This document shows positions 1-6,373 of a DNA stretch of 64,000 bases, piece by piece; position 1 is the first letter of the stretch; every line of letters starts with the position of its first letter. The position numbers and the translations under genes were made by a program. A model generated the notes under the pieces. The model ran no database searches, was not told the DNA's origin, and was given only the letters and a program-made list of their open reading frames with translations. The stretch lies in the IMG/VR virus record IMGVR_UViG_3300028789_000005; one strand, 5' to 3'. Source of the DNA: a virus (Duplodnaviria; Heunggongvirae; Uroviricota; Caudoviricetes).

Positions 1-420
1 GAATGACTTTGGATACTCGACAACTTCGTCGCCAATGGCGATGCCGATTGTCATACCAAGGATTTGGCGATAAGACGCTTCGTCCTTGGCACCCATAACG
101 AACCACTGCGTGCCGAACAGCCAGAGCTCGCCAGTGGACGAGTTGTAACTGTAGTTGTCCTTGCCTACAACGTTGAACAGATCGATGAGTACGTTGCGGT
201 AGATCGTTTGCTTTGACGCGCCCGTCATCAGCCGCTTGGCGTTGGGCGGTATCTTATAACGGCACAATTGCACGATCGTCTTGGCGTTCAGCGTGAAGGT
301 CTTAGAACTTCGCACTGTGCCAATAAGGATGGTGTACCGCTTGTCCTGCTCCGGCGGTCGCATGATGAAGGAATGCGACTTCTTGCCGAAGGGCTTGATG
401 ATCAGCTCGGTGTCACTCAC
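1..420 (-). CDS. terL: terminase large subunit, N-terminal part (gene continues beyond window start)
   Basis: Minus-strand translation from GTG at 420 reads VSDTELIIKPFGKKSHSFIMRPPEQDKRYTILIGTVRSSKTF...LWLFGTQWFVMGAKDEASYRQILGMTIGIAIGDEV. This is a terminase ATPase N-terminus with a P-loop-like GTVRSSKT. The start overlaps the stop of the upstream gene by 8 nt. It is absent from the ORF track because it runs off the window. Confidence 0.75.
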   Translation of the reverse strand, partial: MSDTELIIKPFGKKSHSFIMRPPEQDKRYTILIGTVRSSKTFTLNAKTIVQLCRYKIPPNAKRLMTGASKQTIYRNVLIDLFNVVGKDNYSYNSSTGELWLFGTQWFVMGAKDEASYRQILGMTIGIAIGDEVVEYPKSF

Positions 421-1105
421 TCGGCCCAGCCTTTAGTGCTGCAAACAAACCTTCCAGCTGCTCGTTCTTTCCACCGCCGCCGAGGTCAGGCTGGCGTCCA
501 TGCTTCTTGGGCTGTAGATGGCCCAATGTCCACTGTAACCCGGCGAATGCGAGCTTGGCTCTCTCGACGTTGTCGACGATGCGACTCTCTACTAGATCCT
601 CAACGTCGCCGTCCCGAGTAACGACTTGCTTATGGGTGACGATGGAGTAGCTTGTAGGACGTTGAGTTATTGCCCTTGCGTCGTCTTCGAAAAGTGGTAC
701 AAGAAACTCTTTCGCGCGCGCATGGATTTTCGAGAAGGAGTGTTCTTTATCTGCAAGCCACTTCACGAGTTGATACAGACTCGGGTTTCCTTCGATGGCT
801 GCTAATTCACGTAACGTGCTGCCAGTAGCGATCAGCGCAAAGAGTTGCTCGCCGAGCTCGTCTGTCCATGGAAATTCTGGATTCGGTGGTCGACCAACCT
901 TCCGCTCTGAAACTACTTGGTCCTGAATGGCGAGCTTTACTTCGGCAACAGATTCTTTGGCTTTACGTTGTGATTCTGCTTGCACAGCACGAAACACAGT
1001 CTTATTGGCTGCGGACTTCTCTGCTCGTGTGGGACGACCGTCGTGCGTTTTTGCCGGCACCTTAGCAGCAGGCGCGGTGGCCTTAGACTGCTTCTTAGAT
1101 GCCAT
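413..1105 (-). CDS. terminase small subunit-like DNA-packaging protein
   Basis: ORF track 413..1195 trimmed to the internal ATG at 1105, preceded by AGGAGA. Sits immediately upstream of terL with a coupled overlap. The basic N-terminus and the segment TDELGEQLFALIATGSTLRELAAIEGNPSLYQLVKWLADKEHSF are HTH-like, as in small terminases. Confidence 0.5.
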   Translation of the reverse strand: MASKKQSKATAPAAKVPAKTHDGRPTRAEKSAANKTVFRAVQAESQRKAKESVAEVKLAIQDQVVSERKVGRPPNPEFPWTDELGEQLFALIATGSTLRELAAIEGNPSLYQLVKWLADKEHSFSKIHARAKEFLVPLFEDDARAITQRPTSYSIVTHKQVVTRDGDVEDLVESRIVDNVERAKLAFAGLQWTLGHLQPKKHGRQPDLGGGGKNEQLEGLFAALKAGPSE

Positions 1106-1584
1106 GCGGTTATATCTCCTGGGACTTAAAGCAAGGAAGGGCCGCGAACCACGTTGTGCGGTCAGCAGCCCCTCTGGACGTCCGTCTACTTGCACTCTTC
1201 TTCAGAGCAGGCAGCTATTAGGTGTTCTTACTGGTCAACTCGTACTACTTATCGAGTGACACCCTGGTCGCTGCTAACCACGCTCAATGTCGTGCGGCCT
1301 CCGTAGAGTGCCGCCGATGTAACTGTTTCCGTTATGGGTGCCAATGGCATGCTCACTCTAAAGTAAGCTGAACGGTCGTCGTTACTCACGAGAACTTTGC
1401 CGCACTCACTGCGGCTGCCCTATCCGGAGAGCGCGGAGGAAGGGTGCTCGATAACCCCGAGTCCAGGACATGCACACTCAAAGAGTGTCTCTCAACAGTT
1501 TGGTCAAAGAACGTGAGTACATCTATCTGGGTAACGTGGTGGTCCAGCCTAGATGGCTCGATTGCCCATAGCTTCTGAGCAATA

Positions 1585-1648
1585 TGGTCGGTGAAGAAGG
1601 ATTTGAACCTCCGGCATCTAGCTCCCAAAGCTAGCGCGCCATTCACCG
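1585..1648 (-). tRNA. tRNA-Pro(UGG)-like element lacking a D-arm
   Basis: The reverse complement is CGGTGAA-TGGCGCG-CTAGC-TTTGGGA-GCTAG-ATGCC-GGAGG-TTCAAAT-CCTTC-TTCACCG-A-CCA. It has a 7-bp acceptor stem, a 5-bp anticodon stem with a 7-nt loop carrying UGG, a canonical T-arm, a discriminator and CCA. The 3' half closely resembles bacterial tRNA-Pro(UGG), but only 7 nt occupy the position of the roughly 17-nt D-arm. Confidence 0.45.
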
Positions 1649-1743
1649 TAATCTTTAGGGCACTCGCGGGCTAACTGGTAATTTGCGCGGTTTTCATGTT
1701 CCGCCGTTCCCTGCCGCTAAACGCACCCTACATATATTATAGG

Positions 1744-1932
1744 CTAACTAGCTTGTTCCGACATCATGCTGCGGTAGGAGTACACCACCATCAACTCCTC
1801 GGCCGTGAGCTTCTCATCGAACAGCACGGTGCCTACCTTGCCGGCCCAACAAGCATGGACGTACTCTTCAAGCTTCTTCAAGCTCTCTATCAAATCCATC
1901 GCCATACCTCGATCGCTAACCAAACCGCCCAT
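1744..1932 (-). CDS. hypothetical small protein
   Basis: ORF track 1744..2142 trimmed to the first ATG downstream of the GIY-YIG gene stop (1932), with GGTGGA upstream. The sequence LIESLKKLEEYVHACWAGKVGTVLFDEKLTAEEL looks protein-like, whereas the competing plus-strand ORF is His-rich and unnatural. Confidence 0.3.
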   Translation of the reverse strand: MGGLVSDRGMAMDLIESLKKLEEYVHACWAGKVGTVLFDEKLTAEELMVVYSYRSMMSEQAS

Positions 1933-1996
1933 GCCGCCATCCACCACGCGGTGCACCCAACCACCAGCGCCGAACCCCACACTACAATGGACCGTA

Positions 1997-2725
1997 TCAC
2001 TTCGCAGCCAATTTCTTAGCTGCATTTGCGCGACGCGTTTCCCAAATCTTTGCGGATAAAGCTGCTCTGTCTTCTGCCGAACGTGCTGCCCAACCACGTT
2101 TAGAAGCTTCGGAACACTTAGCAACAAACTCTGGGCTTTCAAACTTGGACATCAAGAGTTCACGTTTTGTGGCCCACATAGACTTAGACTGTTTACTGAC
2201 TAAGCTACGTCTACGTGGTGATCGCACCTCTTCCAGATGCGCAGCTTTCTTTACGGGATCCTTAAACCGCTCTTTACATGCTGCGCTTACTGAGTCACGA
2301 AACTCTTTACTAGCGAAGAGTACGGTTTTCTTTGCTCGGTAGTCTGGATCTGCCCACACAGCTTTCTGTTTCTTAGAAAGAAGTTTTAATGATCTCTTTG
2401 AAAACTGCATTCCACCACAACCACCAGTGGTGAGATTGTAGCCGTGACCATTGTCGATGAACGTGTCAAGCTTCGCGATGTAAAATTCTTCTTTCTCATT
2501 CAACAGCGAAACAGGCCCACGCCAAACAACTGATTTCTCAAACGCTTCCCACCCATACAAACGCATCGCATTATACAGCGGATGCTTTATCTTCTTCACA
2601 AACGCAGCACATTTGTGCCCACGCCAACGAACGAGTTCATTTACTCGTTCATGCTGCCCTACGTAACCCTTACCATTTACAGTACAATGAAAGTAGTATA
2701 TGAGACCTTGCTGTTCATTCTTCAT
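1997..2725 (-). CDS. GIY-YIG homing endonuclease with NUMOD-like C-terminal repeats
   Basis: ORF track. The N-terminus GLIYYFHCTVNGKGYVGQ...YNAMRLYGWEAFEKSV...EEFYIAKLDTFIDNGHGYNLTTGG is a GIY-YIG catalytic domain. The C-terminus carries repeated basic helices (KQKAVWADPDYRAKK, KEFRDSVSAACKERFKDP) like NUMOD DNA-binding modules. AGGAG lies upstream of the ATG. Confidence 0.75.
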   Translation of the reverse strand: MKNEQQGLIYYFHCTVNGKGYVGQHERVNELVRWRGHKCAAFVKKIKHPLYNAMRLYGWEAFEKSVVWRGPVSLLNEKEEFYIAKLDTFIDNGHGYNLTTGGCGGMQFSKRSLKLLSKKQKAVWADPDYRAKKTVLFASKEFRDSVSAACKERFKDPVKKAAHLEEVRSPRRRSLVSKQSKSMWATKRELLMSKFESPEFVAKCSEASKRGWAARSAEDRAALSAKIWETRRANAAKKLAAK

Positions 2726-2738
2726 ACGTACTCCTGCA

Positions 2739-3020
2739 CTATACAGTTCTTGGAAGTCCCCAAATTCTTAAACCATTTACAGGCTTGCCATTCCAATCAG
2801 AGCATGGCACAGGTTGCCAAACCGAACCGACGTTCACCGATACGATGTACGTACTGCATTCAACCGCCGTATTCATACCGCCCACTTGCCGATGCGTCTC
2901 TGCTTTGATCAACGTCTCAGCGTCACGTTTCGATATGTGCCGATGATGCTTACACGTTGGCCAGATACCGTAATGTTCCATACGTCCAGCTTCTTCTAAC
3001 GATAGCACGCAGTAATTCAA
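2739..3020 (-). CDS. hypothetical protein (start uncertain; possible internal start at 2978)
   Basis: ORF track. First gene of the leftward module after the divergent region. Contains CKHHRHISKRD but no convincing HNH or zinc-finger spacing. Confidence 0.3.
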   Translation of the reverse strand: MNYCVLSLEEAGRMEHYGIWPTCKHHRHISKRDAETLIKAETHRQVGGMNTAVECSTYIVSVNVGSVWQPVPCSDWNGKPVNGLRIWGLPRTV

Positions 3021-3221
3021 GGGATAGCTACGCCTCAGGATGAACTCGGGCTGTTAGGACTCGGGGTATACCGCCCGGTCACGGTATCTAAGATCGAGCC
3101 GCCCTGGCTCCATCTAGACCACTCTCTAAGCAAACCACCCTACCCACTCTTCTATCCTTGTTGTTGATCTAATTCTAAACTAACCAGCGACGTAGCGGGG
3201 AGCTAAAGTGACCGTCTGCTA

Positions 3222-3525
3222 CCGCTACAATTGCGACGAATCATATCTAACGCAGAATGTGCCACTGGCTAACTATTTCTCCATTCCGCTGTAGACCGCT
3301 AACTTTGATGGTGGTAGATAACCCACGCAGAATGTGCCACTCGCTGGCTTGCTAACTATTTATTACTTATATTTAAACCAAGTAGAATAGGGTGAGTATA
3401 TATATATGCCAACTAAGTACTATAGCAGGGAGTGAGAGCGAATTGTAGCGGAATTGTTAGCGGGACCTAACCACCAGCTTTAACAACTACATAGCGAAAA
3501 AGCCGCTAACTTCCAATTGTAGCGG
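3222..3525. repeat. iteron cluster: AATTGT(T)AGCGG x3 direct (3441, 3453, 3515) plus one inverted copy (3222-3232)
   Basis: Seen directly in the AT-rich intergenic region between the divergently transcribed modules. The inverted pair GTTAGCGG / CCGCTAAC also occurs at 3457-3464 and 3503-3510. Confidence 0.6.
3250..3363. repeat. two copies of a ~31-bp direct repeat ACGCAGAATGTGCCACT(C)GGCT..AACTATTT
   Basis: Copy 1 is 3250-3280 and copy 2 is 3325-3363. Copy 2 carries a 7-nt insertion. Both lie in the AT-rich divergent control region. Confidence 0.6.
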
Positions 3526-3624
3526 TTTACTCTTGCGGCCGCTTTGACCTTAAAACCTAGTCACGCTTCTACATAAAATATATACTTGCGTTAACACTAA
3601 TTGGAATCGGAGGACGACCAATAT

Positions 3625-4143
3625 ATGGCGCGACGCGTTATGCGTGCCTTCACTTTATCGCCTGAGACGTCAGCCGCTTTGGACAGACTACTGTCCGATC
3701 CGCCTGAGCGCGAAGTACTCAGCCGTCTGTTGCAAGCACCAAGTACCGTAGATCTAGACAAGCATTTCCTGTCTACGCAAGACTACGAGTACCTTTACAC
3801 ACTACTGCCGCCAGTAACTCCAGGCGCTGACATGAAGAGCATTAAACGCTGGCCGACTCTTAATGGGTTCGACACACATCTATCGCGGTGCAGTGAATTC
3901 GACCGCTTTCTGACGAAGCGCGTCTTACTGCAAATGAACCAGCGTATACGCATCAACAAGCGTAGCGTTAAGACTCCTTCAATCAACGTAAGTCGTATTG
4001 TGGATGCGCTGCTATTACCAGCTATCAACAAGTTGTACGAAAGGGCTCGCCAGAGTGAAGCTGCTCCAAGCAAGAGAACTGATGCTAAAGAAGGCCGCAA
4101 CAAGTTGTCTGTCTCCAGCCGACGTAAAGGCGTTGCAGTTTGA
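3625..4143 (+). CDS. hypothetical early protein
   Basis: ORF track 3601..4143 trimmed to the ATG at 3625, preceded by GGAGGA at 3610-3615. First rightward gene after the control region. Confidence 0.45.
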   Translation: MARRVMRAFTLSPETSAALDRLLSDPPEREVLSRLLQAPSTVDLDKHFLSTQDYEYLYTLLPPVTPGADMKSIKRWPTLNGFDTHLSRCSEFDRFLTKRVLLQMNQRIRINKRSVKTPSINVSRIVDALLLPAINKLYERARQSEAAPSKRTDAKEGRNKLSVSSRRKGVAV

Positions 4144-6373
4144 TCCGTACCCAGAGGGCCACGAACTAGACATCTATCCAGCCGGGTTGGCCGGATTCAA
4201 GATACCGTACTTCACGCTGGACGGCAAGGTAGATACGAGCGTGTATCGTTTCCGTTTGCTACAGAGCAAGCCCAGTAAAGGCTGGAAGTCTGTTACCGAA
4301 GAAGCGGAGAAGCCAAGACGCTACACCCAACCACAAGGCACCCAGTGCGGAGTGTATCTCTCGCCCATATTAAAGAATATGGATGGCGCGCCACTGACCT
4401 GGAAGGAAGTGGCCAGGAATACAAAGATACCCATCGTCATAACCGAAGGTGAGCTCAAAGCTGCTTGCGCCTGTAAGCTGGGCTTCCCAACTATAGGATT
4501 GGGTGGCGTCTACAACTGGCGCTCGTCAAAGCAAGGATTTGATTTACTACCCATTCTGGAGAAGTTTGATTGGCACGACCGCAATATCTACATCGCGTTT
4601 GACAGTGACACGAAGACCAATCCAATGGTGCGTATGGCGGCTTCACGCTTGGCCTGGACACTAGGAGTGCGTAGCGGTCTGGTTAATATGATGGAATTAC
4701 CGGAGGGCGAAGAAGCCAAGAAGCAGGGTCTGGACGACCTAATCTTCTCGAAGGCGACCACCGGAGGGCGAAGTGCTAAGAATCTGAGCACGCTAACACC
4801 AGACGCGCAGATATTGGCGGTTGATGCTGCTGACTTCACGGCAGGTGTTGAAGTAGTCGGCGAGCTTGTCGTGAACAGTAAGAGCATCGGCCCGGGAAAA
4901 GAGCTGCACCGGCTCAACAGCGAGGTAGGGTTGGTACGTAAAACCAACGAGATCGTGGAAATTCTCACTGGTAATGTATACACCCCAGCCGCGTTCACGG
5001 AATCATTGTACAAGAATCGCACGTACACTGATAATACAGAGACAGAGAACGCACGCATGCAGCGTAAGTTCGCGGCTAAGGAATGGCTGGCCATTGAAGA
5101 ACGCACGGAGTTCAGCGAGTTTGCGTACGACCCAAGCTGTAATCGCATCGTCACTGATAGCGGCGCGTACAATACGTGGTATCCGCAACGCTGGGCTATT
5201 GAGCCATCCAAGCATCTACGTGACTCAGTCACTGGGGCTAAGAAGTTGGTATCGATAGCACCGTGGGAGACACTATTCAACCACGTATTCCAAACCCTTA
5301 CAGATGAGCAACGCCAATGGATGAAGTGTTGGTTAGCGTACCCCATTCAGTTCCCGGGCACCAAGTTATTCACAGCCATATTGGTTTGGGGCCGTACCAC
5401 CGGCACCGGCAAGTCGCGCATCGGTGAGACGATGAAGACCATCTACGGCAAGAATTACACCATGATCAACAACGCCCATTTGACAGCCAATTTCAACGAG
5501 TGGGCAGAGAATAAGCAATTCATCGTGGGCGATGAGATTTCGTTGGGCGATAAGCGTGGTGTAGCCAATACCTTGAAGGGCATGATTACCGGTACGACCA
5601 TTCGGTTGAACATCAAGAATCGCAAGAGCTACGACATAACAGATTGCATCAATTACTACTTTAGCAGTAACCATGAAGACGCCATGTACCTGGAGAATCA
5701 CGATCGGCGGTACTTCATCGTACACGCCGACATTGAGCGGCTTCCAGGGTCGTTCTACACCGATTACATGCAATGGCTGGACCACGAAGGGGGGGCCGCG
5801 CGGCTGTTCCATTATCTGAAGTACGAAGTGAACGTTGACGCACACGAACTGGTTGTTTCGGCCGACACGCCTGGAGCCGTGCGCAGAGGTAACAGTTGGG
5901 TGAAGGAAGTAGCGGCTTTCAATCCCAAGGGCGAAGCTCCTGTTACCACTGCCAAGCTCGAGATGATGGCTAGTGGGCGGTCCGACGTGGAGGATTGGGC
6001 GTTCGGCTTGAAGGCTGATCCCGATAAGCAATTAGGTGCCGGGCCTAAGCGGGTGTACGACCTGTACACGACAAAAGAATTGTTGGCCTTTTACGATAAA
6101 GGCGATGGTAAGGTTAAGTCTAACGGCATGGCGCGCGCGTTGAATGCGGCTGGTGTGTTCAAGTGTGCCAACGGATCAAATCATGTGCAGATAGCTGGTA
6201 GCCGTGACGTCGTTTACGCGGTGCGCAACGTCGACAAGTACAAACGGTCAGGACCAGCAGAGATATCGAAGGCTTACGCGTTTGAACGTCGTAACGAGTT
6301 CGTTCCACCATCTGAGCGAGTCGGCAAGAGTGAGAAGTTCGTGTCCTCGACGGCCAAGGCGCGCTTGAATTAG
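4082..6373 (+). CDS. DNA primase-helicase (N-terminal TOPRIM primase domain, C-terminal P-loop NTPase of the P4/D5/VirE type)
   Basis: ORF track 3998..6373, start placed at the in-frame ATG at 4082. The TOPRIM-like region is IPIVITEGELKAACACKLGFPTIGLGGVYNW...IYIAFDSDTKTN. Walker A is WGRTTGTGKSRIGE and Walker B is FIVGDEIS, followed by TGTTIRLNIKNRKSYDI...RRYFIVHAD, typical of primase C-terminal/D5_N helicases. Confidence 0.75.
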   Translation: MLKKAATSCLSPADVKALQFDPYPEGHELDIYPAGLAGFKIPYFTLDGKVDTSVYRFRLLQSKPSKGWKSVTEEAEKPRRYTQPQGTQCGVYLSPILKNMDGAPLTWKEVARNTKIPIVITEGELKAACACKLGFPTIGLGGVYNWRSSKQGFDLLPILEKFDWHDRNIYIAFDSDTKTNPMVRMAASRLAWTLGVRSGLVNMMELPEGEEAKKQGLDDLIFSKATTGGRSAKNLSTLTPDAQILAVDAADFTAGVEVVGELVVNSKSIGPGKELHRLNSEVGLVRKTNEIVEILTGNVYTPAAFTESLYKNRTYTDNTETENARMQRKFAAKEWLAIEERTEFSEFAYDPSCNRIVTDSGAYNTWYPQRWAIEPSKHLRDSVTGAKKLVSIAPWETLFNHVFQTLTDEQRQWMKCWLAYPIQFPGTKLFTAILVWGRTTGTGKSRIGETMKTIYGKNYTMINNAHLTANFNEWAENKQFIVGDEISLGDKRGVANTLKGMITGTTIRLNIKNRKSYDITDCINYYFSSNHEDAMYLENHDRRYFIVHADIERLPGSFYTDYMQWLDHEGGAARLFHYLKYEVNVDAHELVVSADTPGAVRRGNSWVKEVAAFNPKGEAPVTTAKLEMMASGRSDVEDWAFGLKADPDKQLGAGPKRVYDLYTTKELLAFYDKGDGKVKSNGMARALNAAGVFKCANGSNHVQIAGSRDVVYAVRNVDKYKRSGPAEISKAYAFERRNEFVPPSERVGKSEKFVSSTAKARLN

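Follow-up and report, generated by a model that had tools for sequence, protein, structure and literature searches.

Locus and architecture of the element

The sequence analysed, referred to as the window, is a stretch of 64,000 nt from an uncultured virus of the Caudoviricetes (IMG/VR record IMGVR_UViG_3300028789_000005) and covers 64 kb of a phage genome of ~100 kb. Its minus strand carries, upstream of the genes for the small (TerS) and large (TerL) terminase subunits, a 64-nt element with the acceptor, anticodon, and T arms of a proline transfer RNA (tRNA) with anticodon UGG, tRNA-Pro(UGG), and without a D arm. Along this strand follow the open reading frame (ORF) ORF93, a GIY-YIG endonuclease encoded by a free-standing gene 349 nt upstream of the element, another, uncharacterised ORF, a TATAAT box, the element itself, a spacer of 480 nt, TerS, and the start of TerL; a primase-helicase operon runs on the opposite strand from about position 3600. 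Coordinates are collected in Table 1. The GIY-YIG homing endonuclease and terminase neighbours named in an initial annotation, made from the sequence alone, were found as described (endonuclease, 2725..1997; TerS, 1105..413).

Read from the minus strand, the element is CGGTGAA-T-GGCGCG-CTAGC-TTTGGGA-GCTAG-ATGCC-GGAGG-TTCAAAT-CCTTC-TTCACCG-A-CCA, and as RNA its anticodon loop is UUUGGGA. Direct reading and pairing of the strands upheld the 7-bp acceptor stem, the UGG anticodon arm, the T arm, the discriminator A, and the encoded CCA given in the initial annotation. Its gap of 7 nt in place of a D arm also stood; the measure of what is missing had to be revised, as intact orthologues have 20 nt at this place (U8, N9, a 17-nt D arm, and N26), so that 13 nt are absent.

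Two of the programs suggested for checking that annotation recognise the element, Rfam above its cut-off and ARAGORN in mitochondrial mode only. Searched against all Rfam families on both strands of the 64-kb window, it scores 49.4 bits (E 1.5e-7) with RF00005, for which the gathering score is 29; the cmscan alignment skips 11 D-arm model positions and places no residues there. It is the sole Rfam match in the 64 kb, and likewise in a permissive scan of positions 1..4000. In bacterial mode ARAGORN called no gene at the element, and in metazoan-mitochondrial mode it called mtRNA-Pro(tgg) at exactly 1648..1585; the latter mode is noisy (1–4 spurious calls per 5–8 kb locus), so this call adds little by itself. 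The minimum-free-energy fold is –26.3 kcal/mol (z = –3.3; 0 of 200 shuffles fold equally well), and a structural pattern of the three-armed architecture has one match in the window against 0.00 expected. The three-armed tRNA-Pro architecture is real and far beyond chance.

The element region is 100% identical in four of four independent contigs compared (JGI, ENA, IMG/VR), so that all four share one clonal, fixed deleted allele. Identical sequence in independent JGI, ENA, and IMG/VR assemblies rules out an assembly artefact. In the assembly collection, 89 indexed blocks contain an identical primase, with contigs of up to 100–102 kb. Among deposited phages, no near-identical DNA, close isolate, or close cultured relative was found.

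Table 1 Features of the window and of related loci. Positions are those of the window unless a locus (L) is named.
Feature	Position	Strand	Evidence or remark
D-arm-deleted tRNA-Pro(UGG) gene, 64 nt with encoded CCA	1585..1648	minus	Rfam RF00005, 49.4 bits; orthologous to full-length genes of L005, L087, L215, L219
Acceptor stem 5' strand CGGTGAA, C1 pairs with G72	1642..1648	minus	7/7 pairing with 1595..1589
Connector T-G-GCGC-G (U8, G9, one surviving D-stem GCGC, G26); deletion junction	1635..1641	minus	structural alignment, four orthologues
Anticodon arm CTAGC-TTTGGGA-GCTAG, 5/5 pairs; anticodon TGG at 1627..1625; U33 and G37 present	1618..1634	minus	
Variable loop ATGCC, G46 and C48 retained	1613..1617	minus	alignment; predicted fold pairs loop with residual D strand
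T arm GGAGG-TTCAAAT-CCTTC, 5/5 pairs including one G-U at 50-64	1596..1612	minus	
Acceptor 3' strand TTCACCG; discriminator A at 1588; encoded CCA at 1587..1585	1585..1595	minus	sequence read and alignment
TATAAT box, 88 nt upstream of element	1736..1741	minus	likely promoter of a putative element-TerS-TerL unit
Free-standing GIY-YIG Seg-like homing endonuclease, between ORF93 and tRNA	1997..2725	minus	PHROG homing-endonuclease families, 1.7e-19
ORF93, conserved upstream neighbour marking the slot	2739..3020	minus	52% identical to ORF95 of L005
TerS, conserved downstream neighbour	413..1105	minus	Pfam Sf6_terminase, 1.1e-13; phrog_1482
TerL, 5' part, ~140 codons; rest beyond window start	1..420	minus	phrog_2 terminase large subunit, 1.3e-26
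Thymidine-hypermodification gene set	between ~10 kb and 52 kb	plus	
Further TATAAT examples	6435, 15541, 20081, 25511, 30481, 40218, 49959	plus	
TATAAT example, box upstream of element	1741	minus	
Permuted two-piece transfer-messenger RNA (tmRNA)	L215 2827-3327; L218 361-732; L220 2922-3290		upstream of TerS

Intact orthologues and the origin of the deletion

Relatives were gathered through homologues of the small terminase and of the primase; the fetched loci are designated by L numbers. Four diverged lineages have a full tRNA-Pro(UGG) gene of 77 nt, scoring 64.8–66.8 bits, which is oriented alike and placed in the same slot, with an ORF93 homologue on one side and TerS on the other: L003-L007 with L010 (the L005 lineage; TerS 61% identical by tblastn, 69% by pairwise alignment), L087 (primase 60% identical), L215, and L219 (TerS 49% and 47% identical, respectively). 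A metagenome scan gave one further copy of the L005 lineage. All four orthologues encode CCA. In the structural alignment their D arm, GCGC-AGTCTGGTA-GCGC with flanks TR-...-R, is identical and is the only fully invariant part; the four differ mutually at 10–15 other positions. The window copy is the orthologous gene minus 13 nt, namely one GCGC and the 9-nt D loop, and the deletion is bounded by a 4-nt microhomology. Against its nearest intact relative, L215, the window copy is identical at 54 of 64 shared positions; the 10 differences are four compensatory pairs (4-69, 7-66, 28-42, 29-41) and positions 47 and 57. By this comparison of sequences the origin of the element is considered settled: it is a phage tRNA-Pro gene minus its D-arm stretch. 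The deleted or degenerate phage tRNA put forward in the initial annotation is what the syntenic genes of the four lineages, intact where 13 nt are missing here, confirm.

Loss of one copy of a direct repeat together with the intervening bases points to replication slippage or microhomology-mediated repair, which would have acted between the two directly repeated GCGC strands of the gene's own D stem and removed 13 bp. An alternative concerning this cause, compatible with any view of what the element does now, is that the deletion arose as a side effect of the GIY-YIG endonuclease next to it, either as a microhomology-repair scar or as a selected self-immunity. The enzyme gives weak matches to the Pfam GIY-YIG family, and by tblastn matches Seg-like endonucleases at about 25–28% identity; by synteny its gene is inserted at a place where L005 has none. 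SegB of T4 is likewise a GIY-YIG enzyme; its gene lies among clustered tRNA genes, and its cuts fall within tRNA genes (PMC2330249). In addition, the 4-nt microhomology at the deletion is of the kind this cause would leave. Yet SegB recognises the T-psi-C motif and cuts the 3' end of the tRNA gene, not the D arm (PMC2330249); L087 keeps an intact tRNA-Pro near a GIY-YIG gene, whose product is only 28% identical to that of the window; and slippage between GCGC repeats needs no nuclease. A part for the endonuclease is on balance improbable.

Also offered in the initial annotation was descent of the element from the 3' half of a tRNA-Pro gene of the host, as the core of a phage attachment site (attP). 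Such 3' halves lacking a matching 5' strand turn up often in contigs of viruses and bacteria and resemble att sites (for example L033, L069, L077, L055). In the element the 5' acceptor strand is present and paired at 7 of 7 positions, and its orthologues are entire tRNA genes of phages. A search of 185,579 bacterial and archaeal species, each represented by one genome, gave no exact match to the 22-nt 3' end GGTTCAAATCCTTCTTCACCGA, though the host may be unrepresented among them, and no integrase or recombinase is among the families listed for 47 ORFs of the window (25 of 31 for Pfam, 25 of 45 for PHROG; 64 of the ~100 kb). The window codes for a 5-hydroxymethyldeoxyuridine (5-hmdU) DNA kinase (PF18723, 1.9e-41), thymidylate-synthase-like proteins, and a TET-associated glycosyltransferase (PF20691), and for PolA, ligase, helicases including SNF2, and nucleotidases. 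From these genes the phage DNA is probably modified, and its own replication genes with the thymidine-hypermodification set suggest a virulent phage. With orthology to whole phage tRNA genes, a paired 5' strand, and no exact match of the 3' end in the species genomes searched, an attP origin was rejected as extremely improbable.

Among the nearer relatives, TerS homologues of L011, L012, and L013 (78, 72, and 69% identity) lie on contigs that begin 85–181 nt upstream of TerS, and the loci of the primase homologues L084-L086 (74, 71, and 68%) have no tRNA in the slot, or a contig that falls short of it. A search for ORF93 homologues recovered only ORF93 itself. L011-L013 are Logan contigs, and in each sample the assembly graph seems to break near the slot; strain variation at the slot, or a repeat that other genomes have too, may be the reason.

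Cargo of the slot differs between relatives. In L014 it is a tRNA-Trp(CCA); in L084 and L015-L023 the slot holds nothing; and in L215, L218, and L220 a permuted tmRNA is found in it (Rfam RF04321, 68–101 bits, cut-off 47), of which Rfam detects none in the 64-kb window. Since the slot may hold tRNA-Pro, tRNA-Trp, a permuted tmRNA, or nothing, the tRNA-Pro gene is taken as dispensable cargo, and since this cargo is accessory and turns over, loss of the tRNA would be tolerable. The tag that ARAGORN gives for the three tmRNAs is unusually long (ATQRDS[T/M]RKNNVLAF...AA); the permuted form hints at hosts that themselves have such tmRNAs (alpha- or betaproteobacteria). Between tRNA-Pro and tmRNA, directly downstream of the former, L215 has a weak second tRNA-like match of about 100 nt (2554-2653, 34.1 bits), which may be a long-arm or degenerate tRNA.

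Functional state of the deleted copy

With moderate confidence, the element is read as an impaired or dead young copy of tRNA-Pro, in effect a tRNA pseudogene, and the deletion as most likely a recent loss of an accessory tRNA gene. The deleted allele is fixed in an abundant, clonal phage of ~100 kb, behind a promoter-like TATAAT box, and is probably still transcribed. An acceptor/T-arm minihelix is a sufficient RNase P substrate, and with this minihelix intact the transcript would probably still be cut. Without a D loop, the elbow contact of G18/G19 with the T loop, G15 as the Levitt partner of C48, and U17a are all gone, a loss that makes a young, crippled or dead copy most likely, and not a working decoder. 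That the D arm is invariant among the four intact orthologues further argues that it matters in this host.

The opposite view, that the element is a working D-arm-less elongator tRNA-Pro which would be transcribed, matured by RNase P, charged by the prolyl-tRNA synthetase (ProRS) of the host, and able to decode CCN on the bacterial ribosome, is unlikely. ProRS of E. coli depends on G72, A73, G35, G36, and G37, with the Levitt pair G15-C48, G49, and U17a as further determinants (PMC9976931). Apart from the D arm, the element keeps every tRNA feature intact, and it keeps the main proline determinants, C48 and G49 included; G15 and U17a went with the 13 nt, as did G18 and G19. There are no uncompensated stem changes relative to the nearest orthologue, size and shape are those of mitochondrial D-arm-less tRNAs, ARAGORN in mitochondrial mode calls it, a promoter-like box lies upstream, and the allele is fixed in every contig compared, with the primase in 89 blocks.

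In the predicted fold of the element, the residual D strand G9-G12 forms a new helix of 4 bp with U45-C48 of the variable loop, stacked on the anticodon stem at the place of the D stem, for which this pairing would, on the working-tRNA view, stand in. As an in-silico control, the same deletion was made in 341 distinct class-I tRNAs from the fetched loci and the products were refolded: a helix between connector and variable loop of at least 3 bp formed in 47%, and of at least 4 bp in 25%. The helix comes nearly free because G10, C11, G46, and C48 are conserved tRNA bases; the GGCG/UGCC pairing was therefore rejected as evidence of adaptation, being a common default that arises in a quarter to half of deleted tRNAs. 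Core bases were considered in the same way. The window copy seemed derived at positions 9, 26, 44, 45, and 47 relative to L005 and L087, whereas the full-length gene of L215 already has G9, G26, A44, and U45, so these core changes predate the deletion and were likewise rejected as adaptations following it. The differences between the window copy and L215 are what ordinary divergence of working tRNA genes produces, and no feature of the element requires selection after the deletion.

The rarity of the form also speaks against a working tRNA. A pattern for tRNA-Pro(UGG) with a 4–8-nt connector after U8 gave 60 matches in 2.9 million viral contigs, of which only this phage has the acceptor paired 7/7 and the other two stems intact; the remainder are either ordinary tRNAs whose D loop has CGG...T, or att-like 3' halves. 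In the genome collection at least 120 matches were obtained, with only degenerate copies among the matches listed. Nor does the armless form occur with compensatory changes in diverged homologues, the four diverged homologues all keeping the D arm, and the literature gave nothing relevant on D-arm-less tRNAs in phages. The D-arm-less form is thus a singleton, one clonal sequence and not a class, with the genome part of this statement limited to the matches listed; taken with an invariant D arm in the orthologues and dispensable slot cargo, it weighs on the side of a broken copy.

Internal deletions of tRNA-Pro genes do occur elsewhere. In L147 (Mesorhizobium sp. M1312) a tRNA-Pro at 5381-5442 (33 bits) has a deletion spanning the 3' strand of the D stem and the 5' strand of the anticodon stem; this tRNA-Pro is one of several odd tRNA genes that come in a row after a low-scoring copy of RNase P RNA (132.7 bits, posterior accuracy 0.86), in a stretch (5023-5990) beside a 16S rRNA gene. 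In L207, a genome contig of 2 kb, a D-arm-less-looking tRNA-Pro(UGG) at 315-374 (34.3 bits, acceptor 6/7, without CCA) is followed by a hairpin and a T-run and is probably a degenerate copy or an att remnant.

Expression of the element is suggested by the TATAAT box. The window has 20 copies of the motif, where shuffles give 8.7 +/- 2.9; many copies precede a gene start by no more than about 70 nt, often in the form TATAATTAA with a G+C-rich stretch before it, and by its placement the motif (G+C-rich-TATAAT-TAA) is probably a phage promoter. TATAATTAA also stands in front of the intact tRNA genes in L215 and L005. A sigma-70 promoter rule found nothing beside the element, where the TATAAT box has a poor –35. 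Judged from the arrangement of box and genes, transcription of the element is probable, at minimum as the terminase operon's leader. In L005 a hydrophobic ORF of 37 codons (5695-5808; MLRKFIEYTLAACICIIIYYVTAWVLWFSWLVWGLKR) ends in a TGA stop that reaches into the start of the tRNA-Pro gene, an overlap which implies that this gene for a small membrane protein and the tRNA are transcribed together.

The arrangement in the window would also suit a non-decoding role, in which the minihelix would guide RNase P and 3' trimming of the terminase leader, or sequester a tRNA-binding host factor as a decoy. The element is on the same strand as TerS and TerL, between them and the promoter-like box; its acceptor and T arms are perfect; RNase P requires the acceptor/T domain only; and co-transcription is what the abutting ORF stop and tRNA of L005 imply. 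Relatives with an empty slot (L084, L016-L023) express their terminase genes without such an element, however, and the anticodon arm is perfect, though it would have been free to decay if the minihelix alone mattered. A processing or decoy element is accordingly given a low probability.

Several observations count against an impaired or dead copy and have to be set beside it. There is no decay: all 17 of 17 stem pairs, the anticodon and T loops, A73, C1-G72, and CCA are intact, and a check for the relaxed constraint of a pseudogene found 0 mismatches in the 17 stem pairs and canonical loops. With no stem pair broken, either the deletion is young relative to the divergence of the lineages or the RNA is still selected, and the lack of decay fits continued selection and a very recent deletion equally well. 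The strong ProRS determinants C1-G72, A73, G35, G36, and G37 are kept, as is a promoter-like box upstream. The allele is fixed in a widespread phage and is therefore at least not harmful. CCA makes up 25.6% of proline codons and is the most used NNA class relative to other four-fold families, a weak hint that demand for tRNA-Pro(UGG) may persist. D-arm-less tRNAs function in animal mitochondria, and D-arm-deleted tRNA variants are said to have been active in E. coli in work of Hou and Schimmel from 1992. Finally, the close relatives with TerS identities of 69–78% have contigs that end short of the slot, 85–181 nt upstream of TerS.

Phage context, known systems, and meaning

The neighbourhood of the packaging genes is an endonuclease insertion hotspot in almost every relative. 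Genes of the GIY-YIG or HNH type are present at varied positions near TerS, TerL, and the ORF93 homologue in L011 (871-1707), L012 (1615-1944), L013 (2474-2797), L016 (3832-4206), L084 (1916-2257), L087 (2980-3618), and L088 (494-1138). In the window, the true start of TerS is M31 of a longer ORF, as fixed by alignment, and the ORF of TerL runs on to 429 aa in L082 and L001. Between ORF93 and the divergent primase operon (3243-3361) are two direct repeats of 28 nt (ATAnCnnACGCAGAATGTGCCACTnGCT), 75 nt apart, each followed by CTnGCTAACTATTT, and a perfect inverted repeat of 13 nt is at 3221-3233 / 3514-3526; the repeats may have a regulatory role or belong to an origin.

Among known systems, the intact tRNA-Pro(UGG) genes of the sister lineages (L005, L087, L215, L219) are nearest to the element, with the same slot, strand, anticodon, C1-G72/A73, and encoded CCA, and a T stem that is the same in L215 and L219. 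In contrast to intact phage tRNA-Pro, the element lacks 13 nt, its Rfam score falls from ~66 to 49 bits, and a bacterial gene finder misses it. With tRNA pseudogenes and internally deleted copies such as those of L147 and L207, and the term tRNA pseudogene is used in the literature alongside phage genomes, it shares descent from a functional gene by one disabling deletion; it differs from such remnants in that one domain is cleanly lost, the rest is undecayed, and an exact three-armed outline is left. Metazoan mitochondrial tRNAs of the tRNA-Ser(AGY) type share the three arms, a short connector for the D arm, and a length of about 60 nt before CCA. Those D-arm-less tRNAs are ancient, conserved across lineages, and served by co-evolved synthetases and ribosomes, whereas the element is a single clonal allele of a bacterial virus, with G+C-rich canonical stems and an encoded CCA. 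As for the endonuclease, segB of T4 is a free-standing GIY-YIG gene beside a phage tRNA gene, as in the window, and SegB targets the tRNA genes of relatives that are endonuclease-free (PMC2330249); the enzyme of the window is distant from SegB, which cuts tRNA 3' ends and not D arms.

The novelty of the element is modest, with a small chance of something remarkable. If it is merely broken, it is a tidy example of the loss of an accessory phage tRNA by one slippage event in a palindrome-like D stem, at a slot where RNA genes of translation and homing endonucleases turn over; annotation is affected too, since tRNA finders in bacterial mode overlook copies of this kind, which Rfam places well above its threshold. 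If it is functional, it would show that a three-armed tRNA can serve the translation machinery of bacteria in nature, with a bearing on the design of minimal tRNAs and on the origin of the armless tRNAs of mitochondria. That a natural D-arm-less elongator tRNA of a bacterial virus should be prolylated and accepted by EF-Tu and the bacterial ribosome is rather doubtful. Were it true, it would be the first D-arm-less elongator tRNA outside organelles, and loss of the D arm could aid escape from a host defence or modification system that targets tRNA by reading the D arm.

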